Positions 8,356 to 35,600 of a stretch of 64,000 nt of DNA are shown piece after piece. Within the stretch, counting starts at the first letter, position 1; every line of letters starts with the position of its first letter. The position numbers and the translations under genes are program-made. The stretch comes from a phage. The stretch lies in sequence record PZ445527.1. One strand, given 5' to 3'. The notes beneath the pieces are model-generated. The model made no database searches. It was not told where the DNA came from and worked only from the letters and a program-made list of their open reading frames with translations.

Positions 8356-11205
8356 TTAAATAGTAGCCCAACTAACAGATTGTTCCCCACTTTCCCCTTC
8401 AGCTCGTATCCTAAATCGTAACTTACGATTGATACCTAGAGCACCTGAGTTCAGCAAAGCAAAATCCGCCTTATTATATGTTAATAGATAGTCATAAGTA
8501 TAGGCATCCTCTATCCTAATACTACGAAGCATTCTATCCTGAGAATCATGTATTTCTAGAGTGTAATAGATTTCTGGAATTATTTCTTCCTCAGGTATCT
8601 TATCCCAGGCAAGTTTCACATCTGGACCAACAAATTCAGTCACATCTCCAGAAGCTGTATTAGTTACTCTGAAGTTACTAACTACACTCAAGTTTCTAGC
8701 AGAGTTAAGATCCACGGAAAGAGTAACAGGAGAACTACGTCTACCGTTAATATCAACAGCACGTAGTTCAAAAATAGCTAAACCAGCAGGCTCACCTATA
8801 ATCTCCTGAATCATCCTTTCATTAGGATTATTCTCTAATTGCTGAATTATGTAAGGATCTACATGACCTGAATGAGCTATAGAGTAGTATACTACGTTAT
8901 TAGTAAGACTAGGTAGCCAAGATAGTTCCCCATTTTTACCTATAGCACCTATCATACCACCAGGAGTAGGAGTGTATTTAAAGTCTCTAGGAGGTAGAAC
9001 GTTATTACTAATATCAGGAATATCATTACCACTATTATCTACCTGTTCGGAATTAATAAATACATCTTCCCCGTACTCTTGGAGGACTAGATTAATTTTA
9101 CCATCACGAGTATTTTCTACTTCGTCAACCAGGAAGAACTTGTCTTTCCACCCATAACGCTCATAAGTAAACGCAATCGGATCATTTGGCTCTATACCAA
9201 TGAACTTATAAGGTACTGAGAAGCTAAGCGTACGTGAGTATCTAGATTTTTTAAGCTCTCTATCTGCGTAACTACGAGCAGTGTAGTAGTTAGTAATATT
9301 TGCAAAAGATAGCTGAAGTTTTTTATCCAAACCCTTATCTTGTTCTTTAAACTTAGAGTTATAGAATGTAATAGAGTTTGTTTTCCAACTTAGCGCAGGG
9401 TCTACTAAGGATGCTTGTACTGAGTTAAATTTATTTCTACCAGTAGTATCAGATAAGTCTAAGTCCCCATAAGTATCCAGAAAACTTATCTTCAGAGGAG
9501 TTGTAGAATGCTTCTCTACAGTTATTCTATACTCACCAGATAAGTTATTTATAGCTCCGCCAAAAGAATCCAGTACTCCTTGAACATTTTTAAATACTGA
9601 TTCGGAAGTATCTAATATAGTGTTTAACTGAACTACTTGGCGATGTTCAGAAATAGAATCACTCCAACCAACATATCTCCAATATGGTTGCCAGCTAACC
9701 TGATAAGATTCATCAATTATATCTAGAATTTTTGCTTCTGATATAATCTTTTGTAGGGGGAACTGATCTAGAGTTATATTAGCCCCATAACGTTCAGAGG
9801 TTAGATAGTCCATAAGCTGCCAGATACCGTTAAGGCTAGTTTTATCAGCTTTAACAGACCCATCAGAACTATATACTTTGACTTTCTTACCTTGTACTTC
9901 AGCACTAATTTCTGGAATTTCAGTTCTGTTCTCATTAATAGTAAATCTAACTACAGCGTAGGCTGTGTCTAAGAGCTTATAACGAGAATCCCAGTATTCT
10001 GGTCCATTGCCGTTTTGATTCTGTAAATAGAAACCTTTTCTTTTAGCAATATCCACTAATACTTGAGCTGCTGTCTGGTCTGGTTTGCCATGAAAGGTCC
10101 ATATTCTTATGTCACCATTACCATCATTATACTTATACTCTTGCCCATGAACAGAAGGTTGAGAAGTACTTGTACCAGCAGCTAGTCTATGCATTGTATC
10201 ACCCACTAGTTTCTTACGACCGAAACAGGTTCTAGCATTGGAATCCGTTTCATCGAAACAGATCATTGGGCTGTCCCCAATATAGAAATCTAGGAATCCG
10301 TCAATTTCTCCTTCCGAAAAAGCATAAACTACATACACTATATTAGGGTTATTTAGCTCAGTATCTGCAAAAATAGGGATACCAGGAATTTTCTGAACCC
10401 CATATACAACAGGTATAAATTTAGCAGCTAAGTTAAAGTCTAAATCAACTTCTTTAGTTACAGTCTCATAATACTTTTTAAGACTGTAACTTCTTGATAG
10501 ACCAAAGAGTTTCTTCTTGGACTGAAGTTTATAGCGTTCTTCTTTAACTTGGTATTTAGCTAAGATAGTGGTACTTTTATTAGAGTGGAAGAATCCATAG
10601 TCTTCTTGATATTCAGGACGTTTAGCACCATTAGAAGGCTGTAATTGTCCATTAACAACTTCAAGTCCTCGGTGAGAAGCATCATCGGTATAACGACCAT
10701 TCACCCTATCAAAGTCGTAGAACTGGTTGGAACAGTTCCATGTGATAACAGAGGTTCCTATTCCTGAAGTAGTAACATTATCTTTTATTCCGCCTCCGGT
10801 AATTCTACCACGGAAGAATAATAAAGGGCCGTCTGTACTAGGATCTACTGGAAGAATATTTCCTTCTTCATCAATTATTGCTTGATGTATAGTAATAGTT
10901 CTATCTAAGAAAGATACCCCATTTTGAACTAGTTTTAATACTTCATCTTCTGCTGTACCAGTTATAGTGAAAGATAAACTACCAATAGATAATTGGCGGT
11001 TCTGCTTATGGGAGCTTATACTTTTTACTTTACCTGATCTATATAAGATCCCGTTATAAGTAACATCTCTAAAGTAGTCAGTTAAATAAATATAAGTAGC
11101 AGCAGAGCCAGATGAACTAGGAAGCTCTAAAGCTATAAGACAAGCTGTTTTTAGCTTGTCATGAGTATTAAGATATGTTTTAGCACTATCGAGTATCTGC
11201 TTCAT
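8356..11205 (-). CDS. baseplate hub protein (pb3-like)
   Basis: 949 aa; located between distal tail protein and pb4-like genes. Confidence 0.7.
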   Translation of the reverse strand: MKQILDSAKTYLNTHDKLKTACLIALELPSSSGSAATYIYLTDYFRDVTYNGILYRSGKVKSISSHKQNRQLSIGSLSFTITGTAEDEVLKLVQNGVSFLDRTITIHQAIIDEEGNILPVDPSTDGPLLFFRGRITGGGIKDNVTTSGIGTSVITWNCSNQFYDFDRVNGRYTDDASHRGLEVVNGQLQPSNGAKRPEYQEDYGFFHSNKSTTILAKYQVKEERYKLQSKKKLFGLSRSYSLKKYYETVTKEVDLDFNLAAKFIPVVYGVQKIPGIPIFADTELNNPNIVYVVYAFSEGEIDGFLDFYIGDSPMICFDETDSNARTCFGRKKLVGDTMHRLAAGTSTSQPSVHGQEYKYNDGNGDIRIWTFHGKPDQTAAQVLVDIAKRKGFYLQNQNGNGPEYWDSRYKLLDTAYAVVRFTINENRTEIPEISAEVQGKKVKVYSSDGSVKADKTSLNGIWQLMDYLTSERYGANITLDQFPLQKIISEAKILDIIDESYQVSWQPYWRYVGWSDSISEHRQVVQLNTILDTSESVFKNVQGVLDSFGGAINNLSGEYRITVEKHSTTPLKISFLDTYGDLDLSDTTGRNKFNSVQASLVDPALSWKTNSITFYNSKFKEQDKGLDKKLQLSFANITNYYTARSYADRELKKSRYSRTLSFSVPYKFIGIEPNDPIAFTYERYGWKDKFFLVDEVENTRDGKINLVLQEYGEDVFINSEQVDNSGNDIPDISNNVLPPRDFKYTPTPGGMIGAIGKNGELSWLPSLTNNVVYYSIAHSGHVDPYIIQQLENNPNERMIQEIIGEPAGLAIFELRAVDINGRRSSPVTLSVDLNSARNLSVVSNFRVTNTASGDVTEFVGPDVKLAWDKIPEEEIIPEIYYTLEIHDSQDRMLRSIRIEDAYTYDYLLTYNKADFALLNSGALGINRKLRFRIRAEGESGEQSVSWATI

Positions 11206-11816
11206 AGACTTTCCCTCAAGGAAAGTGAAATACCAGAATAAGTACCATTGTTATTTAGGGTAGAACCGAAGGAATCTCCGTTCATTAGCTTAGTTCTAAA
11301 TAAGATACCATTAAAAACTGGTTTTTCACTACCCGTAGTAGTAATAAATAGATCAGGATATAGGGAAATATTCCATACGTTTCCTGAGCTACTAAAATTT
11401 GTTATTTTATAAACTTTAGGATGATTAGATAACTTAAATAGGTCTCCAGCTTTTGGCTGTCCAGTTAAGGTTCCATTAGTATTTAGTATAATTTGAGAAC
11501 CTTTTTGACCAGCAGGTATGGTAACACTCTTAGTATCACCACGTACTCTAAATGCTTCATACTGAGGCAGGAGTACATCTAAATAATCTCCAGTTCTTTT
11601 ATATTCTAAAAGCTTAGAGTCTAGAAATGCATATTCATCCGGGAAAAGTTCCGGGTATGAGATATTAATTCCCCAGTATTGAGCAGATATTTTAACCTCT
11701 TTGACTTTACCATTAGGTAATTCATCACGAATCATAGGGTCGTTATCTACTAAATTGACGCTTTCAAAACCTAACCCTGGGTACTCTGGGTTCGTGTATG
11801 GATCTGGTAGTCTCAT
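11202..11816 (-). CDS. distal tail protein (Dit, pb9-like)
   Basis: 204 aa; immediately downstream of tape measure gene. Confidence 0.65.
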   Translation of the reverse strand: MRLPDPYTNPEYPGLGFESVNLVDNDPMIRDELPNGKVKEVKISAQYWGINISYPELFPDEYAFLDSKLLEYKRTGDYLDVLLPQYEAFRVRGDTKSVTIPAGQKGSQIILNTNGTLTGQPKAGDLFKLSNHPKVYKITNFSSSGNVWNISLYPDLFITTTGSEKPVFNGILFRTKLMNGDSFGSTLNNNGTYSGISLSLRESL

Positions 11817-11925
11817 AGTTAATTTCTCCTCTTTAATAACAATATTATAATAGTATTGGAAAATTTTATCAAGAAATTTTTATTTTTCCATAAAGAAAAG
11901 GAGGACATAAAGTCCTCCTCCAATA

Positions 11926-14900
11926 TTAAGAATTACCAAGAGATTTCAGGGTGGTTCCATTCTCATTAAGAGCCAGTTCCACGGCATCTCTGAAAGCAGT
12001 ACTATTATTCGATGCAAAATCTCTGAAGCTTGCTGCATCCATAGTGCTGATATTCAGGATAATAGGTCTACCAGAAGAGGACCTTGATCCTTCGGAAAGC
12101 TGATCATTAGGCGTAGCTTTCATAGGAACCATAGGAGTAATTACCTCGGTACCATGCTCACCCATTTGATAGCTTACTCCAGGGTACATCATACCACCCT
12201 CAGCACGCGGAACAAAGGAGTTAGCATTACCAATACCTTTATCACCACGTAGGTAGGATAGTTCTCCTGAACTAGCTTGCATAGATACATCAACATTTTT
12301 CTGTCGTTCACCTAGAGTTAAGTACTTAGTAGTATTTGCTCCAGAATCCACAGAGGGTATAGAGGATGCACTAGAAGCAGAGGCTAAGGATAGTGCGCCT
12401 GCAGCAGCCGCAGTGGCCATCATCGTTAACCCTAATGGTAAGAACGGACGGGTAGCTGCAGCGTTCATCATAGCTACGGCTGTAGATATGATTATTTGCT
12501 TTTTAGCTTCTCGCTGCTGTATCTTAGTCTTTTCTGCCTCCAACTTCTTGATTTTAGCTTTAGATTCCTCAGACTTACCATCACGCTTCTGTTCTGCTGC
12601 AATAGCCTGGTCTATTGCACTTATTTGCTGGTTAGCAGAATATGCCATCATCTGTCCCACCATCTGCATACCTGCAGATATGGTTGTTATACTATCCAAG
12701 CTATTTTGTGCATTAGCCACCACTGCTAAGGAGAAATTACCTATGCTGTTAGCCAATGCTGTAGAAGCAGAATCCACTTCTGACATCTTAGCTATAGCCT
12801 GATCATACATAGACATTCTATTCTCAAAATCAGCAAACTCTTTATCATCACCAGATAATCCATTGGTAGGAGTGAATGTACCCCCTAGTGAGGATATGAC
12901 TGATTTGTACTTTTGATTCTCTCTTTGCTTTTTAAGCTGTTCTAGGGCCGCTGAAGTTTTATAAATCTCATTACGATATTTTATTTCTTCCTCAGTATTA
13001 GCCTTAGACAGTTCTAGCTGTTGCTGCAGAATGGATAATCTTTCCACAAGAATTTGAGATTGACCAGTAACATTTCTTTGTGTTTGGCTAACCTCTAATG
13101 CATCCATGAGGGCTGACACATGTGAGGCAGTTGCCTGATTTTCTGCTTCCCATATTTCTCTACTTATTTGTGCTTGAGCACGCCTTGACTGTTCTACTTT
13201 AGCTTGACCATCCGCTTGTTTAGAGTATAACTTCGCTTTTTCCTGCTCTAACTGCAGCTCTAGTCTTAACTGCGCTAAACGATACTGAGTACTCGTCATA
13301 GTGCGGTCATTCAGAAGAGCTATTTCTCTGTCAACACCAAGAATTTTATCTGTTTGATCCTTAACCTTTTTAGCGGTTTCAAATCCTTGAGCTTTAGTAT
13401 TAAGAATTTCTGTCTCTATCTTAGCTACTTGTTTTAATGCTTCGGGATCATTAGGGTTAATAGCTAGCAACGCTTTTGCTGCCGTAAGTTGTTCCTGCTG
13501 TTGACGCAATAATACTTCTCTAGCTGCTGCCTCTGCCTTAGCCTTGTCCTTAGTCTGGTTGTAAACCTCATCTTTGCGCTTAGCTACTTCCAGTGCATTT
13601 TGCTCACTCTTATCCATAGCAGTTACATATTCTGCTAGGCCTTTCTGAGCATTCTTAATTTGATCTAGGCTTGTGAAACCTAGATTTAGATCCTTAACTA
13701 GAGTATCTGCACTTTGCCCAGTTATTTTAGAAGTATCTTCTATTGCCTTTACAACACTGTTTAGGTCACTAGAGGCTTTCTTAGCGTTAGTAATACTACT
13801 TGCCGCCATTTTTATGTTATTTGCAGTATCACTAGAACTTTTCTTCAGGAAGTCAAAGTTCTTCTGTATCTCTGCTGCAGCTTTGAGGTTCTTAGGATCA
13901 ATTTCGAATACTCCTTTTTCTCCCGGGACAGCAGTGGCAGCATACTTCATTTTAGCTCCTAACTGCTCAGCCAGATTGCCATTACGTAACAGAGCTTCCC
14001 CGGTATCCTGTACCGCTTGTCTTAGAACCTTCTCAGTTTTGGCTCGTTCTTCTATTTCTTTGTTTTGACGAGCCAACTCATTAGTAAGTTGTACTACTAA
14101 CAGATTACTCTCATCTCTAGGAAGACCACCAAAAGCAGTCAATGCATTGACAAAAGGAGCAGTAAATGATTGTTTTGCTCTAATATCATCCAACTGCTGT
14201 TTAATCTCTTGAGCTTTCTTAATACGTTCTTCACTTTCTTTAAGATATGTATCCAGATCTTCTTGAGCCCCTACAGCATTCCCTATTAAAGCTGTAACGT
14301 TTTCAGATGGAGTAATTTTAGCGGATGCACTACGTGCCATTGCAGAAACTCTTGATTGAGAAGCCTTAGTTTGGTACAAGAAAGTATTAAGGGTATCCAT
14401 AACAGGATTTAAGTATGTAGCAGCACTTTGTTGTAAACTTCTTAGAGCTGAGTTAGCATTGGCAGCAAATTGTTCCCAAGAGGTTGCCTTAAGAGCATCA
14501 TCAAGGTATCCAAATCTACGAGTAGACTCTGCAATAACCTCATTTGCATATGCTTGTTGTTTCTGGTAGGTAGTCAGGCTATCTACAGTATATTTAATGC
14601 CTGTACTGGTAGCATTTAACTGTTTAACATAATTTGCATACGCATCGTTAAGACGAATAGTAACACCAAGTTCGTCCAGAAGTTCGATTTCTTGTTTTGA
14701 TACACCCTTAATTACACGGTTAAGTGCATCAGTCATATCAACACCAAGAACAGCAGCAGCACGACGTGCTACTAAACCAAACTGCTCCAATTGTTCACTG
14801 TCAAATCCATAAGCGGAGGCAGTAGATGCTTGACGCATAGCTTCTTCAAAGGATATAGCACCATTAGTAGCGTTTTGTAGGGATAAAGCTAATGTCTGTA

Positions 14901-15588
14901 CCGGTGTGCCTGTTATGGTGCCAACAATAGTACCGAACTGTTCTAGCCTATTTAGCTGGTCACCTACTTTTAGGCTCTCAAAAGCAGTCTGCAGGACGAA
15001 TACGTTAGAAGCAAGAGCTGCATACATAATAGGTAAACTACCACCAATTTTAGCCATTGCTGCAAAATCACGAGTAGCGCCACGAGCGGAACCAGAAGTA
15101 TTACCTATAGCTCTAGAAGCCCTGCTAGCAGCACCTGTAGTATTATTAAATCCTTTAGCTGTACCTCCTAAAGCCCTATTGGTGTCATACAATCTATCTT
15201 GAACCTTCTCTGTTGCAGCTGCAACATCATTACCCATTGCTTTAACAGACCTAGATACTCCATCAAATCCAGCCTCTAGTTTGTCTGCTACTTCAATCAT
15301 TGCAATAGCTAGATCATCCAGCTTAGCACCTATACTATCAATAGATTTAGTGATACTAAGCATGCCCCTACTAGCTTGCATATTTGTAAGACTTTTTGCT
15401 GCCCTATCCGCTGCCCTCTCAATGGAGTAAAGGGTTTTGGGCATTTTACCTAACTGCTCATTTGTCAGTTCGGAAGCAGCAGCAGCGTTTTCTAACGCAT
15501 CAGATACGTTTTCAATAGACTTTGCAGTACGGGTTGCCCCTTTCTGTTTAACGTCTATTAGTAATTCTCGTATTAGCTTATCAGTCAT
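11926..15588 (-). CDS. tail tape measure protein (pb2-like)
   Basis: 1220 aa, extended coiled-coil, hydrophobic segment, C-terminal region; size matches T5 pb2. Confidence 0.88.
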   Translation of the reverse strand: MTDKLIRELLIDVKQKGATRTAKSIENVSDALENAAAASELTNEQLGKMPKTLYSIERAADRAAKSLTNMQASRGMLSITKSIDSIGAKLDDLAIAMIEVADKLEAGFDGVSRSVKAMGNDVAAATEKVQDRLYDTNRALGGTAKGFNNTTGAASRASRAIGNTSGSARGATRDFAAMAKIGGSLPIMYAALASNVFVLQTAFESLKVGDQLNRLEQFGTIVGTITGTPVQTLALSLQNATNGAISFEEAMRQASTASAYGFDSEQLEQFGLVARRAAAVLGVDMTDALNRVIKGVSKQEIELLDELGVTIRLNDAYANYVKQLNATSTGIKYTVDSLTTYQKQQAYANEVIAESTRRFGYLDDALKATSWEQFAANANSALRSLQQSAATYLNPVMDTLNTFLYQTKASQSRVSAMARSASAKITPSENVTALIGNAVGAQEDLDTYLKESEERIKKAQEIKQQLDDIRAKQSFTAPFVNALTAFGGLPRDESNLLVVQLTNELARQNKEIEERAKTEKVLRQAVQDTGEALLRNGNLAEQLGAKMKYAATAVPGEKGVFEIDPKNLKAAAEIQKNFDFLKKSSSDTANNIKMAASSITNAKKASSDLNSVVKAIEDTSKITGQSADTLVKDLNLGFTSLDQIKNAQKGLAEYVTAMDKSEQNALEVAKRKDEVYNQTKDKAKAEAAAREVLLRQQQEQLTAAKALLAINPNDPEALKQVAKIETEILNTKAQGFETAKKVKDQTDKILGVDREIALLNDRTMTSTQYRLAQLRLELQLEQEKAKLYSKQADGQAKVEQSRRAQAQISREIWEAENQATASHVSALMDALEVSQTQRNVTGQSQILVERLSILQQQLELSKANTEEEIKYRNEIYKTSAALEQLKKQRENQKYKSVISSLGGTFTPTNGLSGDDKEFADFENRMSMYDQAIAKMSEVDSASTALANSIGNFSLAVVANAQNSLDSITTISAGMQMVGQMMAYSANQQISAIDQAIAAEQKRDGKSEESKAKIKKLEAEKTKIQQREAKKQIIISTAVAMMNAAATRPFLPLGLTMMATAAAAGALSLASASSASSIPSVDSGANTTKYLTLGERQKNVDVSMQASSGELSYLRGDKGIGNANSFVPRAEGGMMYPGVSYQMGEHGTEVITPMVPMKATPNDQLSEGSRSSSGRPIILNISTMDAASFRDFASNNSTAFRDAVELALNENGTTLKSLGNS

Positions 15589-15600
15589 AATTTATTTTTC

Positions 15601-15636
15601 CCAATAAAAAAGGCTCTGGGCAAATCACCCAGAGCC
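15601..15636 (-). terminator. intra-operon rho-independent terminator upstream of tape measure gene
   Basis: hairpin GGCTCTGGG-caaatcac-CCAGAGCC followed on - strand by TTTTTTATTGGGAAAAATAAAT; same motif as the terminator after the capsid gene. Confidence 0.6.
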
Positions 15637-15671
15637 AAGCCTCATCGTGGAACGCCCATTGGAGGAAACTT

Positions 15672-16040
15672 TTACCGTGCTCGAGATTTAGCATGTGGCT
15701 TAACGTTAGGTATTCTACCGTTTTGCGGCTTATGCTTCTCAGCACGTTTACGTGCAGCGTCTACAGCTTTAGCATCAAATATATTGATAATGTGTAGAAC
15801 AAATTCTTTCTCTATAGGATCGGTAATCCCATAAATATCGAATAAAACACCTAAAGCAGCCCTGTCTTTACCTATAAAGATAGGGAAGTCACCAGGTATG
15901 AAACAGTCAACTAGACTATTATAAATATTCATACTAATAGCTACAATAGGTGGAAAGTCTTCAAGTTCAACAGGCATAGCCTTAGGATCAGGCTCTATAC
16001 CCATTGATTCACAAAGTATTAAATATTGTTGTTTAGTCAT
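15672..16040 (-). CDS. putative tail assembly chaperone (downstream frame)
   Basis: 122 aa between tail tube and tape measure genes; its frame is open upstream to nt 16127 and overlaps the 3' end of the preceding ORF in the +1 frame. Confidence 0.4.
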   Translation of the reverse strand: MTKQQYLILCESMGIEPDPKAMPVELEDFPPIVAISMNIYNSLVDCFIPGDFPIFIGKDRAALGVLFDIYGITDPIEKEFVLHIINIFDAKAVDAARKRAEKHKPQNGRIPNVKPHAKSRAR

Positions 16041-16101
16041 TTTAGATGCTGAGCTTTTAATACACTTATCTGCAAAATCAGCAACAGCATCTAGTAATTC
16101 T

Positions 16102-16506
16102 TTACGCTTTTGAGCTACGAAAAGTGTCTAAGTGGAACACTGTCTGGTTGATCCAAGAATCAAACGCAGCAGAGTTCTGCATAAGCATTACAGCATTATC
16201 ACGACTAAAGGGAACTTCAGTAGTAGGATCAGCATCTGTTTCAATCAGCATCAGCTTCTCAACGTCACCTACAGTCAAACCAGTCCAACCTTTAATTGCA
16301 GCATCAACGAAAGCTTCAATAAACTTATCGTCATCCTGTACTTGAACTAGAGTACCATTAACCCACTCATCGCGTTTGGCGGAAGAGATAACACGCTTCG
16401 AGGTAGCACGAGACATATAGTTAAGCTCTAACTTAAAGTTAGGCATACCTGGGTATGAAAGAGTAATAGTACGGGTATCGAGAGTAATATCTTTTAAGTT
16501 AATCAT
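16102..16506 (-). CDS. putative tail assembly chaperone
   Basis: 134 aa, acidic; canonical position between tail tube and tape measure genes. Confidence 0.45.
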   Translation of the reverse strand: MINLKDITLDTRTITLSYPGMPNFKLELNYMSRATSKRVISSAKRDEWVNGTLVQVQDDDKFIEAFVDAAIKGWTGLTVGDVEKLMLIETDADPTTEVPFSRDNAVMLMQNSAAFDSWINQTVFHLDTFRSSKA

Positions 16507-17402
16507 TATTTTCTTTCTCCAAAGAAGTTTATTTCTACAGGATCTGAATCAGCAGTAGGAATTACATCATACTCTACCTGATACAAATCTGAGAATTTTA
16601 GGCGTTTTGAAATACGTGCTAAAGGAAATGTTACAGAAACATATTTATTTTTAATAATTAGTGGAGTTCTTGTTTCAGGATCTAGATTCAAGAACTTATC
16701 TCCTACCAATCTCTTAACGTAATAGAAAGCTAGCGTTGCGGAAGCATTCATTTCATTGACATAAGCTCGTTTATTAGTATAAACTTTATTTATATCAAAT
16801 ATACTTCTATCTTCTCTCCAAGAACATTGTTGTTGGAAGGACATAGATGCTGAAATTAATGCCGGCAGCGGAGCGCTATTAGTATACACAGCTGGAGGAC
16901 TATACGGAAGTACTTCACCTTGTGTAATTGTATATCCATCACGGAAAGTAGATACTTCAGAGAATTTTCCAGACTCAATACCAACATTTAGAATTGGTAC
17001 ACTCTTATCTAGAGAAAAATCAACTGTTGATACATAACAGTTTTCGAAATAAATACAGCTATTATTATAATTAATAATATACATATTGAACATAATAGGT
17101 TCAATATTGGGAGTATTTCTTGGCAAAAATAATGAATTTCCCTCACGCGTGAATCCCATCCAATCAAAGAAATTAGACTCAATAAGCGTAGTACTGAAAT
17201 TTATTGCCAATGAAATAGATGAAGGATCTTGAGCATTAATAATAGAGTCTGCATAGTTTGTACGATTATGAATAGTACGTCTAAGAGTTTTAAACTCTTG
17301 AAAAGACGTACTAGCGTCATAGTTAGAGAGGGCATCAAAATGATACCCTCTACCATCATACTCAATAACTATTTTAGACTCTCGCATGAGAGAATAAAAC
17401 AT
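16506..17402 (-). CDS. tail protein (T5 p140-like)
   Basis: 298 aa; synteny downstream of major tail tube gene. Confidence 0.5.
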   Translation of the reverse strand: MFYSLMRESKIVIEYDGRGYHFDALSNYDASTSFQEFKTLRRTIHNRTNYADSIINAQDPSSISLAINFSTTLIESNFFDWMGFTREGNSLFLPRNTPNIEPIMFNMYIINYNNSCIYFENCYVSTVDFSLDKSVPILNVGIESGKFSEVSTFRDGYTITQGEVLPYSPPAVYTNSAPLPALISASMSFQQQCSWREDRSIFDINKVYTNKRAYVNEMNASATLAFYYVKRLVGDKFLNLDPETRTPLIIKNKYVSVTFPLARISKRLKFSDLYQVEYDVIPTADSDPVEINFFGERK

Positions 17403-17406
17403 TTAA

Positions 17407-18798
17407 TTAACCACCTGTTACAGTAATCTGTTTAGTACCTTTAACTCCAGAACCATCTTTAGCAGTAGCTTCTACAGTTACTGCACCAGTTTTACCAGCA
17501 TTTGCTGTTAGTAACCCTGTTGCACTGATAGTAGCTGCATCACCGGCAGTGATAGCCCAAGTAACTTCCTTATTCTTTGCGGAAGAAGGAGTAACTTCAA
17601 CACTCATCTGAAGAGTAGCTGATCTATTTAATGTAGTAGCATTTCCAGCAGACTTAACAGTAATTGCGGTTACAGCTTCAGAAGCACCGTCACCGTTAAC
17701 AATTAGATTATTAATAGTTGTTTTGGTATATTTACTAGAGAAGCCCAAGTAACCCTCATCACCAGCATCCAGATCTGACGGAATAGCTTTAAATTCTACT
17801 GAAGTACCAAGTACATCATCAGTCTCAATAGTAGGAATATTAACGTGTGCCTGTTTAGCTACCAGAATAGCGGCAGGACGTTCATCATCGTATTCACCAC
17901 CAAGTACCAGAGCGATTTCGAAGCGGTTAACTACTTTCAGAGCTTTGATAAGATCTTTATACAGTTCCATAGAACCAAGAGATTTATCATTCAGGTAAGC
18001 AGTTAATGAACCAGTTAATTCAAAAGCACCAGTAAATGAGCCGATAGGAATAGTAACACGAGACATTACGTTAGGTGTCAGATAAGTAATGTTGTTGTTA
18101 ATAGTAAAAGTACCACCGGTAATTGGTATATCATAAGACTTATTGGTATCCATGTCCTTGATCTTCAAGACAGTTAATTTGTTCTTAATGTAAGAACCCT
18201 GGATAGTCATATAAGTTTCATCATCAATACCTATTTTATCTGGATCAAATGGTTGCGCGTCCAGTGGGATTAGCTGGTTACCATTACCAGACCAAGTTAC
18301 ACGACCAATATCTTCAATATCAACGTTAACTTCTGCCTGATTAATCTGACAGGAATCGATATAACTCCATGTTTTATCAGTCAGAATGTAAATATGTAAC
18401 ATTGCTAACTCATGATAGGAGTTATCTTTAAAGTTAACCATGAAGTTAGTAGCATTATTATGTGCTCCAGTAGTTCCTTCAAGATTAATAGCTCTACCAC
18501 TAGAAAGTGCATGCCATAACATATAGTCAGGAACAATTTGTTTGCTAGTAGTTTTATCCTTGTAGGGCAGGATATAGGTAGAGAAGCTCCACTCAGCCGC
18601 ATTCAAGGAATCGTTAAAACGTTTAGAACCACGAGTTGGACGCGGACCAGCTTCATTAACAGTAATATCTGTTGAGTTACTGTCCTGACCCCAAGAAATA
18701 TCATCCTGAACTAGAATCTCTTGCGTGTTGGTCTTATTGTGACCAGTCTTAACCGTAGACACGAAGATTCGAGTATTACGTAATAGTTGTAAAGACAT
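17407..18798 (-). CDS. major tail tube protein (pb6-like) with C-terminal Ig-like domain
   Basis: 463 aa; C-terminal Thr/Ala-rich Ig-like segment; size and position match T5 pb6. Confidence 0.82.
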   Translation of the reverse strand: MSLQLLRNTRIFVSTVKTGHNKTNTQEILVQDDISWGQDSNSTDITVNEAGPRPTRGSKRFNDSLNAAEWSFSTYILPYKDKTTSKQIVPDYMLWHALSSGRAINLEGTTGAHNNATNFMVNFKDNSYHELAMLHIYILTDKTWSYIDSCQINQAEVNVDIEDIGRVTWSGNGNQLIPLDAQPFDPDKIGIDDETYMTIQGSYIKNKLTVLKIKDMDTNKSYDIPITGGTFTINNNITYLTPNVMSRVTIPIGSFTGAFELTGSLTAYLNDKSLGSMELYKDLIKALKVVNRFEIALVLGGEYDDERPAAILVAKQAHVNIPTIETDDVLGTSVEFKAIPSDLDAGDEGYLGFSSKYTKTTINNLIVNGDGASEAVTAITVKSAGNATTLNRSATLQMSVEVTPSSAKNKEVTWAITAGDAATISATGLLTANAGKTGAVTVEATAKDGSGVKGTKQITVTGG

Positions 18799-18824
18799 TT
18801 AATTATTTTCTCCTAATCTGTAAC

Positions 18825-19310
18825 TTATCTGCGAAGTGACCTACGTGGAGGCTGATACCTCACTGTTACATTTATTTCTGCTAAACCATATGGGGCCAGT
18901 AGACCCTCATCTGTACTAACTGATGTAATGATCATATCAGTTGCCTCACATGGGAAGGTCGATCCATTAGGTTTACTAACAGTATATTCTAAATTTCCAC
19001 CTGTGTCAATAACGGTTTTTATATCCGCTACGAGTTTTTCAAGTTGCTCTTGAATGTCTGTTTTCTCTTTATCGTACACCAGGATTGGAAGTTCTAAAAA
19101 CATCCACTGTTGGCCTGAAGGAAGATACTGCCCAGTTTCAGTTCCGATATGAACTGCTACATAAGGAAACTCTCGTATTTCCTCAAATTTATAAGTTTGA
19201 CGAGAAACGTTTCCATATAGGTTATTAAAATATTCGTCAGGTTGAGAACCATCCATTTGTTTAGAGATTCGGTCAACCATAGCTTGTGCAATACTTGTTC
19301 TATGGTCCAT
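18825..19310 (-). CDS. tail terminator protein (p142-like)
   Basis: 161 aa; immediately upstream of tail tube gene. Confidence 0.5.
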   Translation of the reverse strand: MDHRTSIAQAMVDRISKQMDGSQPDEYFNNLYGNVSRQTYKFEEIREFPYVAVHIGTETGQYLPSGQQWMFLELPILVYDKEKTDIQEQLEKLVADIKTVIDTGGNLEYTVSKPNGSTFPCEATDMIITSVSTDEGLLAPYGLAEINVTVRYQPPRRSLRR

Positions 19311-19313
19311 TTA

Positions 19314-20081
19314 CTAGGTTCCTTGATTAACCTTAATTTTATATCTGGAGTGAATTAGGTCTCTTGCAGCTTTTGCTATAGCCTCACCAATAAGTTTTTG
19401 TGGGTTTCTAGCGCCAGGATAAGGTCGTAGGGATAATCTTCTATATGTAGATACTGCTGGGTTGAATACAGAATATGGACGAGTCATATAATTATATGTT
19501 ACGTTTAATTCAGGAGAGCCTTTACTGGTTTCAGAATCACGAAGCATAACATCTTTAATTTTTAAAGAGTTTGCAAAGCGACCAGTTCTAAACTTTAATG
19601 GTGCTCCAGCTTTTTTCATATCCTTTATTAAGTATTCTTTAGCAACTATCTCTAGTATAGTCTTCATATTGCTGTTAGACACGAAACGTCCAGAAGCACC
19701 TGTTACTGCACCAGAATATCCATCTTCTACGTCTCTAGGATCACCAAAGTTTACCTGCACTCTACCAGTAGAACGTTTTTTACCTACTGAGGATTTTTTA
19801 CCAGCGGTTGCTTGTATTAGATTCTCCAAAGCACCTAAGTCTCCTGTTAGATCTAAGCTAGAAGAAACTGCTTTTAGTATAGAGGCTGTTCTAACGTTAA
19901 GGAGATCTTGTGATACAGGTTTTGAAAACTTGAAAGATACTTGAGCAACAGTACCATCTCTGGTAGGATCTTTTAATCCTGTTTCAACAGAGTATACAAC
20001 AGTATTCTTATTGTTCTCAGATCGGCTTGCAGTATCTAGCTGCTCCTTAATAATTTGTGTAGCTAAATCAGAAAGAGACAT
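19314..20081 (-). CDS. head-tail joining / tail completion protein (putative)
   Basis: 255 aa; between head completion and tail terminator genes. Confidence 0.4.
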   Translation of the reverse strand: MSLSDLATQIIKEQLDTASRSENNKNTVVYSVETGLKDPTRDGTVAQVSFKFSKPVSQDLLNVRTASILKAVSSSLDLTGDLGALENLIQATAGKKSSVGKKRSTGRVQVNFGDPRDVEDGYSGAVTGASGRFVSNSNMKTILEIVAKEYLIKDMKKAGAPLKFRTGRFANSLKIKDVMLRDSETSKGSPELNVTYNYMTRPYSVFNPAVSTYRRLSLRPYPGARNPQKLIGEAIAKAARDLIHSRYKIKVNQGT

Positions 20082-20593
20082 TATACTCTCCTGTAAACTT
20101 CAATAATAGTACGAATATGCTCTGGAATGCCAGACTTAGTATTATTAAAAGTAACTGTTTCTCCGCCAATTGTTTTAGCTTGACGGTAATCCTGTTTATG
20201 CCAATGGTCTACTAGCATACATGCTGCAAGTTTGAGATCCTCAGGCATTGGATTAAATCCCCCTTGTGTGTACTCTACATCCATATAACCTTCTGGAGGA
20301 CTAAATTTAAGAAGTATAACCCCATCAGAGTACAACTTATACTGTTCGGGATCTATCTCCTTATCATTAATAGTCATTTTGATTATTGAAGTAGCTGAGG
20401 GAGAGCTTAAAAAGTATTTTTTACGAGTAGGTTTTGTATTGATTAACTGGTCTACCGCATCAGCATCATCCATACCTAAAAGGCTAGTAATCAGCGCATT
20501 GGCAGCAGTAATCATCACCTCTACTCCAGATTCTAGTTCCGGTCGTTTTAACCCGCCATATAATCTATAGTCTTCAGCTGTGATTATTTGCAT
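20081..20593 (-). CDS. head completion / connector protein (putative)
   Basis: 170 aa; first gene after major capsid terminator. Confidence 0.4.
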   Translation of the reverse strand: MQIITAEDYRLYGGLKRPELESGVEVMITAANALITSLLGMDDADAVDQLINTKPTRKKYFLSSPSATSIIKMTINDKEIDPEQYKLYSDGVILLKFSPPEGYMDVEYTQGGFNPMPEDLKLAACMLVDHWHKQDYRQAKTIGGETVTFNNTKSGIPEHIRTIIEVYRRV

Positions 20594-20599
20594 TTATTT

Positions 20600-20631
20600 T
20601 TCCCAATAAAAAAGGAGAGCCGAAGCTCTCC
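20600..20631 (-). terminator. rho-independent terminator after major capsid protein gene
   Basis: hairpin GGAGAGC-cgaa-GCTCTCC followed on - strand by TTTTTTTATTGGGAAAAATAAATG, which runs into the next start codon. Confidence 0.7.
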
Positions 20632-20652
20632 TTATCGGCTGAAAAGCCTGTA

Positions 20653-22029
20653 TTAAGATGCAGCGTAAGCACCGGATACAACGCCATTATTAAAGTAACG
20701 TTGCAGGTTAACACGCTGAGTAACGTAGTATGCATCACGCTGTTTACCAGCTTGGCGCTCACGTTCAACAGTAACAGCACGCTGACGCGGCATTACGAAG
20801 TTATCTTTATAAACAATAACTGCGAATTCTGCTGAGTTAGCTTTAGTCGGGAAATACTCGGAAACTACAACCGGCAGACCATAAATACGACCAACCTGAC
20901 CCTGCAGTTTAACAGCATCGTTACCAACTTGGGAAACATCCTGCCATTCTTCATCTTCCAGCAGATCGTAGTAAGCATCCATAGATACGATCAGTACCAG
21001 CTTGCTCAGTTTCAGACCATGGCGGCCCAGTTTACGACGCAGTTTAGAGATAGTCTTAGCAGTTACCTTCACGGAACCGTCAGCTTTAGCTTCTGTGACA
21101 ACCTTAGCACTATCTTCACTAGCAAGGGTCAACAGACCTTTCGGCTTACCAGAACCATCACCAGTCATAAACGCTTCTTCGATAGAAACAGCGTGTGCTT
21201 CAATCAGACGTTTACGCAGCAGCGGTAACAGAGAGAAGATTGCATCTTCTTCAGTTTCATCAGTAATGAAGGACTTAGCAGCCAGTTTGTAGGTTTTAAA
21301 ACTAATTTCAGTTAATGCACCTTTAACTTCGTTACCAGTAGTATTGTCAGTACCATAAGCGGAAGCATCTACCCAAGTAGCTTTACCAGCTTCTGGTTCA
21401 ACCAGCATAGTAAGAATCTTACTAGACATCGGCAGTTCTTCGAACAGTGCACCAACTACCAGCTCTTTCTGCAGATCACGAATGATACGCTGGGAGAAAA
21501 TAGTTTCATAGTTTTCACTGGAAACCTGAACTGAAGAAGAGGTGTTTACAGCTTTAAGGTGATTCTGACCATGTTCAGTTTCGAATACGCCTTTTTCCAT
21601 TACATAAGATAACAGAACCAGTTTTTCAACTTCATCTTCAAAGGCTTCCTGAGTACCGTACAGTGCTTTAGCAACACTATCCCCTACGAAGGAACGACCT
21701 TCACGAGCTGTCAACAGGGATTTGATTTCATCCTGAAGACCAACAATAGTTTCCTGTTGTTTTTCTACAGTTTGTGCAAACAGTTCTGCACTCTTCTTAG
21801 ATTTCTCATCCAGGGACTTAACCAGTTCCAGAGCTTCTTCCAGACGCTTACGGTCTTCGCCAACTGCCTTAGAAACCAGGTCATTCATACGAGCCAGTTC
21901 TTTTTCTTCCTGCTCTTTACGCATACGTTCAGCTTCCTGAGCTTTCTGAGCAGCGGTCAGACCTTCCAGAGATTTAGCCAGATCACCCAGACCAAGTTCT
22001 TCTTTCAGCTTATTAATATCAATAGTCAT
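20653..22029 (-). CDS. major capsid protein precursor (pb8-like, HK97 fold with N-terminal scaffold domain)
   Basis: 458 aa; N-terminal coiled-coil scaffold-like region; follows prohead protease gene. Confidence 0.88.
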   Translation of the reverse strand: MTIDINKLKEELGLGDLAKSLEGLTAAQKAQEAERMRKEQEEKELARMNDLVSKAVGEDRKRLEEALELVKSLDEKSKKSAELFAQTVEKQQETIVGLQDEIKSLLTAREGRSFVGDSVAKALYGTQEAFEDEVEKLVLLSYVMEKGVFETEHGQNHLKAVNTSSSVQVSSENYETIFSQRIIRDLQKELVVGALFEELPMSSKILTMLVEPEAGKATWVDASAYGTDNTTGNEVKGALTEISFKTYKLAAKSFITDETEEDAIFSLLPLLRKRLIEAHAVSIEEAFMTGDGSGKPKGLLTLASEDSAKVVTEAKADGSVKVTAKTISKLRRKLGRHGLKLSKLVLIVSMDAYYDLLEDEEWQDVSQVGNDAVKLQGQVGRIYGLPVVVSEYFPTKANSAEFAVIVYKDNFVMPRQRAVTVERERQAGKQRDAYYVTQRVNLQRYFNNGVVSGAYAAS

Positions 22030-22046
22030 TTTTAAATAATTCTCCG

Positions 22047-22679
22047 TTATTCTTTAACGTAGCCTAAAGCTATCGCAAGTTTTTCTAGTTCAGAAAGATT
22101 ACGTTCTTGAGCTGGGACAGCTTTAGAACTTATTGCAGTAAAAGATTTACGCCATTCAGTATAATCATGACCATTCATGCTCTTAGCGAGATTGAACGTT
22201 GAGTCTTGATTACAAGGTACAGAAACTACCGAAACTTCGTATAGTTCTAAATCTTTAATAATAAATATATCAGTAGCTTCATCCCACTCTGCATCTAGGC
22301 AGCGGAATCCGATACTAAAAGTTTTCAGTACACCGTTTTTAATTAGTGAAAAGATAGCCGGATCGGAACTTTCATAGATCTCACATTCGATTTCGAGACC
22401 CATTTCAGTAGGGTTAAGATCAATACACTTACCGATTGGACGACGATGATCGTGTCCGAAAAGAATAATCGGGTTTTTCATGTAGTTAGTAAGTGCATTA
22501 GACGTTTTCCACGCAGAAGCAGGAATTATATCACCAGCGCGATCTTTACTAATTGTATTAGCGAATCCACGGATTTTTACAACGCCCTCTTTGGATTCGC
22601 TATCAATAGATTTAATATAAGCATCTAAATGAACCGGTGCTGATTTCAACTTATTATAGTCAATAGCAGCTTGTGTCAT
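22047..22679 (-). CDS. prohead maturation protease (pb11-like)
   Basis: 210 aa; GHDH and ELYEVSVVS motifs typical of HK97-type prohead protease. Confidence 0.8.
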   Translation of the reverse strand: MTQAAIDYNKLKSAPVHLDAYIKSIDSESKEGVVKIRGFANTISKDRAGDIIPASAWKTSNALTNYMKNPIILFGHDHRRPIGKCIDLNPTEMGLEIECEIYESSDPAIFSLIKNGVLKTFSIGFRCLDAEWDEATDIFIIKDLELYEVSVVSVPCNQDSTFNLAKSMNGHDYTEWRKSFTAISSKAVPAQERNLSELEKLAIALGYVKE

Positions 22680-22682
22680 TTA

Positions 22683-23174
22683 TTAGCCTCCAACACCAGG
22701 GTTAACTGTCACAGTACACGCAGTAGAATCCTTACTTACTCGCTTACTATCTGTTACAGTTACTTTATAAGAGCCGGCATCCTCAGCTGCTGCTGCAGGC
22801 TTAGTATAGGTAGCCCCTGAAGCACCAGGAATAGGAGAACCATCTTTAGTCCATGCATAAGTATATGGACCAGTACCACCAGTTGCAGTAACAGAGAGTG
22901 TTAATGCTGCTCCCTCTTCAACTGACATGCTCGCAGTTAAATCTTTAGAAAGAGTTAATGGTGGAGCCGGTGGAGCAGGAGGAACTGCTTTACCATAAGC
23001 CTCTACAAATTTCTTCCATACTTTACGGTTAGTATGCGCAGATGAAAGCCCTAGTTCTCTACGCAGAAAAGCATAGCTAGGAACATATTTATGCGCAGCA
23101 ACCGTAGCAAAGAAGATATGAGATTCTGGCAGTTTTTCACCAAAAATGGTCTTTAGACCATTATAATCAATCAT
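22683..23174 (-). CDS. capsid decoration protein (pb10-like) with C-terminal Ig-like domain
   Basis: 163 aa; Pro-rich linker PPAPPAPP then Ig-like domain. Confidence 0.65.
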   Translation of the reverse strand: MIDYNGLKTIFGEKLPESHIFFATVAAHKYVPSYAFLRRELGLSSAHTNRKVWKKFVEAYGKAVPPAPPAPPLTLSKDLTASMSVEEGAALTLSVTATGGTGPYTYAWTKDGSPIPGASGATYTKPAAAAEDAGSYKVTVTDSKRVSKDSTACTVTVNPGVGG

Positions 23175-24388
23175 TCTTTATCTCCCTCGGTGGAACCTTG
23201 AGGTCTACCACCTTCTTGACCAGATACACCTGTTGCAGAACCAGCAACGTTAGCAGGAATACGAATCCTATCCATCTGCTCATCATCTAAAGGTTCAAGG
23301 TTCAGCTCTAAACGAGCTTCGTTACCAGTCATAATACCATTATTAACCAATGAGGTTAAATGTTTAGCCTCAGCTTCTTTATCTGGTGTTAATGCAGCTA
23401 CCTCCTTAGTATTAGGGGTAATCTTATAACCAAAAAAGAAAGTAAGAGAACTAGTCAGTTTGTTCAGCATAGGAATGATAGTCATATAATAGAACAATTC
23501 GATGTTTGGTCGAATATTCGCATTATTACCACCATCAAGCAGTACTTGCGGAACTCCAAAGGCTAGACAAATAGATTTATTGAATCCTTCGATGTCTTCC
23601 TTAAAGTCTAGATCTTTAAAAGAGGATATTTGGGAGTACGGTTTAGCTTTCATGCCACCATCTAGAATCAGGACAGAAGACTGACCAGTACTAGGATTAT
23701 AATCGAGTTGTAATTCTTCTTGTTTACGCTCACGCAATTTCTTGTTCAGGATTTCATCCGTTTCAAGAATAAGACCAATCACGGTTCCGTTATCTAGGAA
23801 TTTCTCTTTAAAGTTAAGCATCTTAGAACGCTTCTCAAGAGAATCAATAACAGTAGCAACACGAGATTGTCCAGAAATTTGAGAGTTTGTGCCACACACG
23901 TAACTGTTATCCTTTATAAAGATAATCTCATCTACGCGATAGTTTATCTGATTATTAAATATAAATTTTTTGATAAACTTATTGGCATCTGCCTCGACCT
24001 GCATAAGAGCAGCCGGGACATGGTAAAGCGATGTGCCATCCCAATAGATGTATGCACAACCTTCAAAAAGTAGGTCAGTGACTACAAGTCTACGGAATGT
24101 GCTTATATCCATGAATGGATTAGGTCGTACATTTAAGAGAGTGTCTAGAGTCTTTGTCTTGATGCCATTGGCATACGTGACAATATTATATTTATCTCCG
24201 ACAGTATAAGAACACTCCGCCGCACTATCTATAACCATATTAGCAGTTCTATTGAGAATCTCAATTTTACTGTAGGCTTGTCCAGTGGTAAAAGGCTTAC
24301 GGTTAGTGCGATGACTAACTGGTTCCATGTCTCTTATAATACGTTGACCCGGATTTAGCTTTTCAGTAATCCAGCTTTTAAAACCCAT
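23171..24388 (-). CDS. portal protein (pb7-like)
   Basis: 405 aa; between terminase and protease genes. Confidence 0.82.
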   Translation of the reverse strand: MGFKSWITEKLNPGQRIIRDMEPVSHRTNRKPFTTGQAYSKIEILNRTANMVIDSAAECSYTVGDKYNIVTYANGIKTKTLDTLLNVRPNPFMDISTFRRLVVTDLLFEGCAYIYWDGTSLYHVPAALMQVEADANKFIKKFIFNNQINYRVDEIIFIKDNSYVCGTNSQISGQSRVATVIDSLEKRSKMLNFKEKFLDNGTVIGLILETDEILNKKLRERKQEELQLDYNPSTGQSSVLILDGGMKAKPYSQISSFKDLDFKEDIEGFNKSICLAFGVPQVLLDGGNNANIRPNIELFYYMTIIPMLNKLTSSLTFFFGYKITPNTKEVAALTPDKEAEAKHLTSLVNNGIMTGNEARLELNLEPLDDEQMDRIRIPANVAGSATGVSGQEGGRPQGSTEGDKE

Positions 24389-24840
24389 TATAAGAACCTT
24401 GCGAATCCTGATTTTGTTTCAGTCTTGACTTGTGTCTTTTCTTGAGGATTCTGTATTTTGTCTTTCTGCTTTTGAACCCACGCTTTTTGCTTATTAGCAG
24501 AAAATAAGGGAGGTTCTTTCGTGTAAACCTTATGTAATAGTTGGTGATGGTGCTGGCACAATGTTACCACGTCCCTAACTAACTCATGCTCATATTTCTT
24601 GTAGAATGCTTCCCTATTTGAAAGGACGATATTCTCATCAGTGAAATCCAGCTGGAGTTCTTTAGCAAATTTTTTTATTAGCTGAGATATAGTATGATAA
24701 TGATGAAGTTCTAGGTCTTCACTACTACCACATATAGCACAGCAACCATCCTTACTATACCTAGATTTTATACCATCCCTCATTATGGAAATGGCATCAC
24801 GTTTGTACTTAGTATTAGTGGCCATACTCCTCCAATCCAA
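24388..24840 (-). CDS. HNH endonuclease (packaging-associated or homing)
   Basis: zinc-finger CAIC ... HHYH ... CQHHH HNH motifs; start overlaps portal gene. Confidence 0.75.
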   Translation of the reverse strand: MDWRSMATNTKYKRDAISIMRDGIKSRYSKDGCCAICGSSEDLELHHYHTISQLIKKFAKELQLDFTDENIVLSNREAFYKKYEHELVRDVVTLCQHHHQLLHKVYTKEPPLFSANKQKAWVQKQKDKIQNPQEKTQVKTETKSGFARFL

Positions 24841-25342
24841 AGCTACTTAGAAAGATTACTATATCCTCTAGGGCAACATTGAGATTCCATCTAATGTGGT
24901 ATAGCATATATGACCCTTATTGTGTTATAGATGTAGTTTTTATTAGTATAGTTATTTAATGGCACATACCCTATTCTGAGTATTTTGGCTTTAATAGCTA
25001 CATCTAGTGATATAGTGTAAAGGTGCAATGTGGTGTTGCTTCCCAAACGTGTGCTCTCTGGCATCTAAATACTGTTTTTGTACGTTGGTTTACATATTCA
25101 CCTACAATTTGGATTCCACGATCAGCTAATCTAATATTTATATCTTTTATTGTTAGCTTTTGTCGACCTATAGAATCTCCTACACCCCATGTAGAGCATT
25201 AATTTTTCTTGTTTACGTTCTATTATGGGAGAAGTTCTCCCGATCAATGAATATAGTATACATAATCGTATCGAATTTGTAAAGGAGATTTTAAAATACA
25301 GGAATGGGGTACCAACTGAGTAGTATCCCATCCTATACTTAT

Positions 25343-35446: not shown

Positions 35447-35600
35447 ATGAGAAATAATAACTATAAAAATAATCACCATTATAATAATAACTATAAAAAT
35501 AATAACTATAAAAATAATCGCCATTATAATAATAATTATAAAAATAATCGCCATTATAATAATAACTATAAAAATAATCACCATTATAATAATAACTATA
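35447..35600. repeat. tandem direct repeats, about 26-27 bp unit, about 5.5 copies
   Basis: unit ATAATAA(C/T)TATAAAAATAATC(A/G)CCATT repeated head to tail. Confidence 0.85.

Follow-up and report, generated by a model that had tools for sequence, protein, structure and literature searches.

A shared terminator and ribosome-binding-site tail at two predicted terminators in the late structural operon of a T5-like phage

We analyzed a 64-kb stretch of the phage sequence record PZ445527.1 (the window), with a focus on two predicted terminators of its late structural operon. Over 15400-21000 the sequence shares 96% identity with Escherichia phage BF23 (Tequintavirus, Demerecviridae), and as a 5.6-kb query this region matches 548 phage records, mainly T5-like phages of Salmonella, Escherichia, and Klebsiella. 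All genes across this region lie on the minus strand in the list of open reading frames (ORFs), as does every feature described below. The BF23 annotation gives their order as terminase, nicking endonuclease, portal, decoration protein, prohead protease, major capsid protein, head completion/adaptor, tail completion, tail-tube terminator, tail tube, baseplate tube, two chaperone-like ORFs, tape measure, and distal tail protein. The first terminator (T1) lies between the major capsid gene (458 amino acids, 20653..22029, stop codon TAA at 20655-20653; 'major capsid protein D20' in BF23) and the head completion or adaptor gene (170 amino acids, 20081..20593, the T5 p144 equivalent according to the BF23 annotation). 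The second (T2) separates an ORF resembling a tail assembly chaperone (122 amino acids, 15672..16040, stop codon TAA at 15674-15672) from the tape measure gene (1,220 amino acids, 11926..15588, also named after BF23), behind which a third terminator (T3) is found. T1 and T2 end in the same 24 nt, which carry the sequence up to the start codon of the next gene.

Both elements have the anatomy of an intrinsic terminator. The T1 hairpin, AAGGAGAGC-UUCG-GCUCUCCUU with a C(UUCG)G tetraloop (20612..20633; as DNA, 20633-20612, AAGGAGAGC-TTCG-GCTCTCCTT), and the T2 hairpin, GGCUCUGGG-UGAUUUG-CCCAGAGCC (15612..15636; as DNA, 15636-15612, GGCTCTGGG-TGATTTG-CCCAGAGCC), were picked up by a terminator scan and by a separate scan of the whole window, and folding recovers both. 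The stems are rich in G+C, with 9 bp and a UUCG loop at T1 and 9-10 bp at T2, which agrees with the ~5-14 bp and short loop of intrinsic terminators, and a 9-nt U-tract (UUUUUUAUU) stands immediately 3' of each stem. The hairpins are situated in noncoding gaps on the transcribed strand, 19 nt (T1) and 35 nt (T2) past the preceding stop codon. Just 3' of the capsid stop codon, folding also reveals a mini-hairpin, GGCT-TTTC-AGCC (20637..20648), whose GGC...GCC stem is kept in all enterobacterial genera with a variable loop. The 48-nt T1 segment comprising mini-hairpin and terminator folds with -19.7 kcal/mol (z -5.1 versus shuffles) and the 43-nt T2 segment with -20.3 kcal/mol (z -4.3). Four pairs of the T2 stem show compensatory changes on both sides across genera, for example from GGCUCUGGG/CCCAGAGCC to GGCCUAGGG/CCCUAGGCC in Klebsiella phage Sugarland. 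The T1 stem is almost invariant; a compensatory A-U to G-C change occurs in locus L027, and in L008 and L021 both partners of a G-C pair are missing. In the BF23 record (OR083247.1) both hairpins are already annotated as ARNold terminators, at 95644-95661 and 90639-90663, and terminators are annotated at both junctions in Sugarland (MG459987.2) and at T2 in Providencia phage PR1 (NC_041913.1). These look like terminators of the ordinary kind, present as predictions in the closest relatives, though strongly conserved.

The hairpin of T1 is not particular to the capsid gene or to this phage family. The exact 24-mer of T1 hairpin and U-tract, GGAGAGCTTCGGCTCTCCTTTTTT, occurs in 61 IMG/VR stretches (loci L076-L134 among them), of which at least 12 are unrelated phage contexts, behind genes for holins, MazG-like, DNA-binding, and structural proteins and behind genes named without a function, which rules out a capsid- or family-specific signal. 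It appears to be an 'ideal' C(UUCG)G terminator that is reused convergently, and such a recurrent optimum helps explain the invariance of T1.

Exact copies of the 22-mer TTTTTTATTGGGAAAAATAAAT lie at 15590-15611 and 20592-20613, and CCTTTTTTATTGGGAAAAATAAAT occurs exactly twice in the window, behind the major-capsid hairpin and ahead of the tape measure gene. With up to 3 mismatches allowed, the 64-kb window holds no further match to the 22-mer. About 0.01 matches are expected by chance and none of 100 shuffles contained two or more, which excludes a chance identity. Counting the CC that closes the 3' arm of each hairpin, the identity extends to 24 nt; outside these, the stems and upstream regions of T1 and T2 are unrelated. 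The minus strand reads GATAAGGAGAGCTTCGGCTCTCCTTTTTTATTGGGAAAAATAAATGCAA at T1 and GGCTCTGGGTGATTTGCCCAGAGCCTTTTTTATTGGGAAAAATAAATTATGACT at T2. A preliminary description of this DNA had proposed that the same sequence of roughly 22 nt follows both hairpins and runs directly into the next ATG. The exact matches bear this out, with the difference that the ATG at T2 lies three bases further on, and its coordinates were right to within a few bases. The motif search that it suggested, run on the window and on 102 kb of BF23, the most closely related complete genome, found the motif only at the T1 and T2 junctions, apart from a degenerate third copy behind the tape measure gene in BF23.

The shared tail has three parts, namely, the U-tract TTTTTTATT, a weak Shine-Dalgarno (SD) sequence GGGA, and an A-rich, unstructured spacer. 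At T1 (20591..20613) the U-tract occupies 20613-20605, GGG(A) 20604-20602, and the spacer AAAAATAA 20601-20594, followed by the adaptor ATG at 20593-20591. Here, the final T of the motif lies within the ATG (AAATG), leaving an 8-nt spacer after GGG. At T2 (15586..15611) the U-tract (15611-15603) and GGG (15602-15600) are followed by the spacer AAAAATAAATT (15599-15589) and the tape measure ATG (15588-15586); three extra bases between motif and ATG (AAATTATG) lengthen the spacer after GGG to 11 nt. GGGA is thus a purine-rich match to the anti-SD sequence 8 nt (T1) and 11 nt (T2) before the ATG, within the 5-12 nt expected of an SD, and the match is weak (3-4 nt). Because GGAG-type SDs serve the remaining late genes of the window, the GGGA module represents a weak and unusual ribosome-binding site (RBS) reserved for the adaptor and the tape measure. 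We also considered whether the tail could be a generic RBS of the phage, but GGGAAAAA and GGAAAAATAA are found nowhere else in the window or in the 102 kb of BF23.

We assessed conservation in 30 T5-like loci from IMG/VR together with BF23, counting invariant columns over 28-29 genomes. Both intergenic regions are nearly unchanged in this set. In the 59-nt T1 gap, 43 of the 59 columns are invariant, compared with 26 of 119 flanking third-codon positions (Fisher p 6e-11); for the 83-nt T2 gap the counts are 76/83 and 37/111 (Fisher p 2e-17). By these counts, both are under strong purifying selection. Terminators occupy the same two junctions in Tequintavirus and Epseptimavirus, Sugarlandvirus, two Pectobacterium-type loci, Novosibvirus, Priunavirus, and a Vibrio phage. 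Both junctions carry them in Sugarland, in L025 and L027 (106- and 122-kb loci), and in Proteus phage PM135, and also in the Providencia phages PR1 and PSTCR5 and in Vibrio phage D124 (sequences diverged). The T1 element of PR1 retains 46 identical nt (GATAAGGAGAGCTTCGGCTCTCCTTTTTTATTGGGAAAAATAAATG) although its adaptor protein is only ~30% identical to that of the window, and in PSTCR5 the sole DNA-level match to the 5.6-kb query is a stretch of 49 nt across the T1 element (98% identical). At both sites the U-tract TTTTTTATT persists from genus to genus and the purine core varies, with GGGT or GGAA in Sugarland, AGAGG and GGAA in L025, GGAG and GAGG in L027, and AGGAGG at both sites in D124. 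In L025, L027, and D124, GGAG, GAGG, or AGGAGG takes the place of GGGA with an unchanged distance to the ATG, which indicates that the purine core behaves as an SD. The preliminary description had spoken of a conserved coupling between U-tract and translation start; the conservation is real and extends through the family, while the coupling amounts to adjacency rather than a demonstrated mechanism.

Could the two tails be alike because they keep copying each other? Edit distances between T1 and T2 are 2-10 within genomes and 2-14 between genomes, so that those within a genome are not smaller. Moreover, T1 variants (in L005, L006, L008, L019, L021, and L028) are unmatched at T2, and T2 variants (in L002, L016, and L026) are unmatched at T1. 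The lack of excess similarity within genomes and the unmirrored variants speak against ongoing gene conversion or concerted evolution and argue for an old shared form under selection at each site. In our reading, the identity of the tails is old and predates the split of the enterobacterial Demerecviridae genera.

Some relatives carry endonuclease-like ORFs at both junctions. In phage T5 (L001, ~9200-9970), an ORF of 250 amino acids (phrog_681, HNH-related) stands directly after the TTTTTTATT of T2 and displaces the GGGAAAAATAAA RBS. L006 and L008 have similar-looking ORFs of 189-190 amino acids between the capsid gene and the T1 mini-hairpin, with motifs shared by eye, and L021 has an insert of like size at T1; in each of these three loci ~680 nt lie between the capsid stop codon and T1, and all three have variant T1 modules. 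From these sequences, the T1 and T2 intergenic modules look like insertion hot spots for homing endonuclease genes.

A scan for promoter consensus sequences found no hexamer pair matching at least 9 of 12 positions in the T1 or the T2 gap. As there is neither room nor a promoter match between terminator and ATG, the downstream genes would need read-through RNA until the next promoter. Such a promoter is present between T1 and T2, inside the tail-terminator gene: a sigma-70 promoter, TTGACA-17-TATACT (18981..19009), with an 11/12 consensus match, lies ~185-215 nt ahead of the ATG (18798) of the tail tube gene (18798-17407, as annotated in BF23). Every Demerecviridae lineage that we examined, those of Vibrio and Aeromonas phages among them, retains both hexamers and the 17-nt spacing, with a variable spacer sequence. 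The promoter is absent from the annotation of the BF23 record.

T3 combines a terminator with a promoter. Terminator scans identify the hairpin GGAGGAGGAC-UUUAU-GUCCUCCUUU (11921-11897), which is followed by an interrupted U-tract. Behind it lies a third copy of GGAAAAATAAA (11889-11879), placed like an UP element, 6 nt upstream of the -35 hexamer of a promoter found by the promoter scan, TTGATA (11872-11867)-17-TATAAT (11849-11844), which spans 11844..11872 and drives the distal tail gene (11816-11202, ATG at 11816, as annotated in BF23). This copy is not at a start codon. The layout of terminator plus promoter is kept in PR1, PM135, Sugarland, and D124, and GGAAAAATAAA behind T3 is limited to the Tequintavirus group. 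The sequence GGAAAAATAA occurs three times only, in the window as in BF23, each time directly behind a late-operon terminator. A -35 and -10 pair with 16-18 nt spacing after an A/T tract is thus found at T3 and not at T1 or T2, and we take the A-rich half of the tail as a multipurpose A/T tract, with no evidence of hidden promoters at T1 or T2. The whole T3 region (11813-11921) reads as terminator, A-rich tract, promoter TTGATA-17-TATAAT, and then RBS and start ATTAAAGAGGAGAAATTAACTATGAGA. The latter is presumably identical to 'RBSII' of the pQE/pDS expression vectors, which carry T5 promoters.

In light of the observed sequence anatomy, the nonchance identity of the tails, their conservation, the covariation of the stem, the promoter-free gaps, and the conserved promoters elsewhere, we consider it probable that T1 and T2 are Rho-independent terminators within the late structural operon that are fused at their 3' ends to the RBS of the next gene and lower the output of what follows. 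That transcription really ends there, how efficiently it does so, how strongly the module is translated, and how this relates to stoichiometry are inferred from the sequence. Most RNA polymerases would halt at the U-tract, giving abundant capsid mRNA at T1 and tail-tube/chaperone mRNA at T2, each with a protective 3' hairpin. A minority of read-through RNA would carry the downstream cistron, whose weak SD is flanked by A/U-rich sequence that possibly aids initiation. Hence, the adaptor, tail-completion, and tail-terminator proteins and the tape measure would be made in low amounts. The intragenic sigma-70 promoter between T1 and T2 would restore high transcription of the tail tube gene, and T3 with its strong promoter would reset transcription past the tape measure gene. 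The operon would then fall into segments: the capsid module up to T1; the adaptor, tail completion, and tail terminator genes, reached by read-through; the intragenic promoter with tube, baseplate tube, and chaperone genes up to T2; the tape measure gene, reached by read-through and ending at T3; and the distal tail and baseplate genes driven by the promoter behind T3.

The tape measure is present in few copies, three per virion. T1 and T2 coincide with drops in copy number, from 775 to 12 and from 120 to a few, as the virion contains 775 copies of the major capsid protein, 12 of the adaptor, 6 of the tail terminator, and 120 of the tube protein (PMC11313276). Steps of ~65-fold and ~40-fold could be within reach of an efficient terminator combined with a weak SD. 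T5-like phages use the host sigma-70 polymerase throughout (PMC7472727), so that terminators and promoters of the host type are to be expected. The preliminary description suggested that regulated read-through sets the stoichiometry of capsid and tape measure. Partial read-through as the means of setting it is plausible, and the positions fit the copy numbers; regulation is unsupported. At T1 and T2 we recognized no antiterminator-type element (nut-, put-, or ops-like), antiterminator proteins not having been searched for. Nor do the elements resemble attenuators or riboswitches, because minimum-energy and consensus folds keep the stems, no alternative pairing is predicted for either arm, and Rfam gives no match. 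We also considered T5 nick sites, RNase III sites, ops, and boxA, none of which showed a recognizable match; RNase III would moreover require longer stems. Constitutive leakiness accounts for the architecture equally well as regulation.

Several points weigh against leaky terminators as the full explanation. Termination and read-through are predictions, and our literature search turned up neither mapped transcript 3' ends nor RNA-seq or reporter results on T5-like phages. The BF23 record contains a 'hypothetical late promoter' called by Sigma70Pred over the T1 gap; it has no recognizable hexamers, and together with the empty consensus scan this led us to reject a promoter in either gap, but if it were real, read-through would not be required at T1. 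The third copy of GGAAAAATAAA lies ~60 nt from any start codon, which implies that this half of the motif is not purely an RBS. The conservation of T1, with 46 bases identical across genera, exceeds what a plain RBS normally shows and is not obviously explained. Likewise, selection on a plain RBS does not account for an invariant 35-nt block upstream of T2, to which we return below.

The closest known systems are the orthologous junctions (capsid/adaptor and chaperone/tape measure) of BF23, Sugarland, and PR1, which are identical or near-identical in sequence and annotated as rho-independent by ARNold or by curators. These records flag the hairpins only and mention neither the shared 24-nt tail nor its family-wide conservation, the tail-tube promoter, or the T2 block. 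The terminator T-phi of phage T7, which follows the major capsid gene 10, is said to have been described by Dunn and Studier in 1983 as terminating incompletely, with genes 11 and 12 expressed by read-through. Like T1, it is a stable hairpin directly behind the most abundant structural gene, and read-through serves the low-copy genes behind it. Its likely role is to adjust relative expression and to stabilize capsid mRNA. However, T-phi works on the RNA polymerase of T7, whereas T5-like phages rely on that of the host; it also lacks both a fusion to the RBS behind it and a second copy with the same tail. Komarova, Boni, and co-workers reportedly described A/U-rich translational enhancers upstream of weak SDs that are bound by ribosomal protein S1. 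The weak GGGA studied here sits between a U-rich tract and an A-rich spacer of the same composition, but its U-rich tract doubles as a terminator tail, and the likeness is one of composition. In phage SPP1, late structural clusters are bracketed by predicted intergenic stem-loop terminators (PMC6316719), as in T5-like phages; a shared terminator/RBS tail is not described there, and conservation across several genera is not reported.

What else could explain two identical tails? They might be the common site of a trans-acting factor that coregulates the adaptor and the tape measure or directs RNA processing after the hairpins; candidates are a phage translational regulator, the host Hfq or CsrA, and ribosomal protein S1. 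Read-through or translation would then be truly regulated, and the sequence of AAAAATAAA would matter beyond SD strength and spacing. Conservation above the usual level for an RBS, most evident in the T1 element of PR1 with its poorly conserved flanking protein, fits such a factor, as does the presence of GGAAAAATAA solely behind the three terminators of the late operon, one of which, T3, has no start codon after it. Furthermore, the motif can fold into a 6-bp A-U hairpin with GGA in the loop, and an (A-R-N)n-like tract lies beside hairpin and U-tail; these features resemble CsrA and Hfq sites. The A-U hairpin presenting GGGAAA is marginal, though (-1.5 kcal/mol, z -1.7), and indistinguishable from shuffles, 18 of 200 of which fold as well. 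Distant genera carry ordinary GGAG or GAGG SDs at both sites instead, the motif behind T3 is confined to the Tequintavirus group and to an UP-element position, no candidate regulator was identified, and Rfam returned no match. We regard a trans-acting factor, the main rival reading, as unlikely. That the identity carries no functional meaning and goes back to DNA copying, through recent gene conversion or a duplicated terminator cassette, appears very unlikely to us. Three terminators within 9 kb bear related tails, an exact identity of 24 nt is hard to reach by convergence alone, and L027 has ATTTG in both modules. Yet the motif is retained across genera at each site independently of the other, a variant at one site has no counterpart at the other, distances within genomes are no smaller than those between them, and the flanks of the 24 nt are unrelated. 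An ancient duplication is possible and would be compatible with leaky terminators fused to an RBS. The least probable alternative, to which we give hardly any weight, is that the A-rich half acts as an UP element and that T1 and T2, like T3, are terminator-promoter couples whose downstream genes depend on promoters and not on read-through. The position of GGAAAAATAAA 6 nt upstream of the strong -35 hexamer at T3 and the Sigma70Pred call over T1 agree with it, and the abstract of a 2026 preprint reports widespread promoter-terminator coupling in bacteria. On the other hand, the ATG comes 0-3 nt after the motif, and hence a promoter using the motif as an UP element would start transcription within the coding sequence and miss the start codon. 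In addition, the gaps contain no hexamer pair with at least 9/12 matches at the spacing seen at T3 or elsewhere; the hexamers at the equivalent positions are, by eye, TAATCA/TTATAT (T1) and CTGATA/CTAATA (T2).

The block upstream of T2 gives rise to two further possibilities. It consists of 35 nt, AAGTTTCCTCCAATGGGCGTTCCACGATGAGGCTTGG (15637..15671), between the chaperone stop codon and T2, and contains the anti-SD-like UUUCCUCC. The block is invariant in 29 loci and largely kept in Sugarland, L027, PM135, and PR1, with one copy per genome and in T5-like genomes only. A 1-nt indel among close relatives shows it to be noncoding, and together with stop codons in the frames of the genes it excludes coding sequence in the T2 gap. 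An Rfam scan of 11000-27000 gave no family at E<=1; compared by eye, the block agrees with ops at no more than 5 of 12 positions, and GCUCU is all that it has in common with boxA. T2 and the block might form a cis-acting translational switch, in which UUUCCUCC pairs with the tape measure SD (GGGAA) and the tape measure is translated only if a ribosome completes the chaperone gene. For 9 diverse sequences, RNAalifold predicts a UUUCC:GGRAA helix that closes the T2 region. Single-sequence folds of PM135, of PR1, and of the chaperone junction of D124 contain 5-8 bp of this pairing, and the stop codon lies 1-10 nt upstream of the UUUCCUCC box in every lineage. However, the helix shows no compensatory change, minimum-energy folds differ among lineages, and the predicted accessibility of the SD is similar at T2 (0.36-0.55) and at T1 (0.27-0.65), which has no such box. 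Without covariation or a difference in accessibility between T2 and T1, we rejected sequestration of the tape measure SD by UUUCCUCC, and a switch of this kind seems quite improbable. The 46-nt T1 element and the T2 element with its 35-nt block could instead be recognition sites of a dedicated post-transcriptional control in Demerecviridae that coordinates adaptor and tape measure with capsid and tube, an idea that we find unlikely. Such control may involve a protein or a small RNA, possibly one derived from the 3' untranslated region and ending at T2, with UUUCCUCC as a seed that masks SDs. The block is the sole piece of this architecture that might lead to something new.

Two observations concern other parts of the window. 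The second chaperone-like ORF is a hypothetical protein in BF23, and its positional equivalent in Sugarland is named 'putative tape measure chaperone'. It lies in the +1 frame relative to the first chaperone-like ORF (134 amino acids, 16506-16102, placed by the BF23 gene order), the pair covering 15672-16506. Its frame stays open for 29 codons before the ATG and reaches into the 3' part of the first ORF. It is conceivable that the two are joined by a programmed +1/-2 frameshift, similar to the G/GT type, rather than by the usual -1 frameshift. At ~35470-35560, an A/T-rich noncoding stretch contains repeated TAATGG(C/T)GATTA units. From its position relative to BF23, it is probably the repeat-rich noncoding border between first-step and second-step transfer in BF23 and T5; if so, the window would span a genome end or a terminal-repeat junction.

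In summary, what is new here is the tail common to two terminators, its family-wide conservation, the promoters that give the layout its logic, and the conserved block upstream of T2; the current understanding of termination is unchanged. The elements may help to annotate the ~550 related genomes, and compact terminator-RBS cassettes may be of use in synthetic constructs. For phage engineering, insertions at the T1 or T2 junction will presumably alter the dosage of adaptor or tape measure, and natural endonuclease genes insert exactly there. If our reading of T1 and T2 as leaky terminators fused to an RBS is true, the late operon of T5-like phages would have a simple and very old layout, in which three terminators and two conserved promoters delimit segments of high and low output that match the copy numbers in the virion, and both step-down points would share one compact terminator/RBS cassette.

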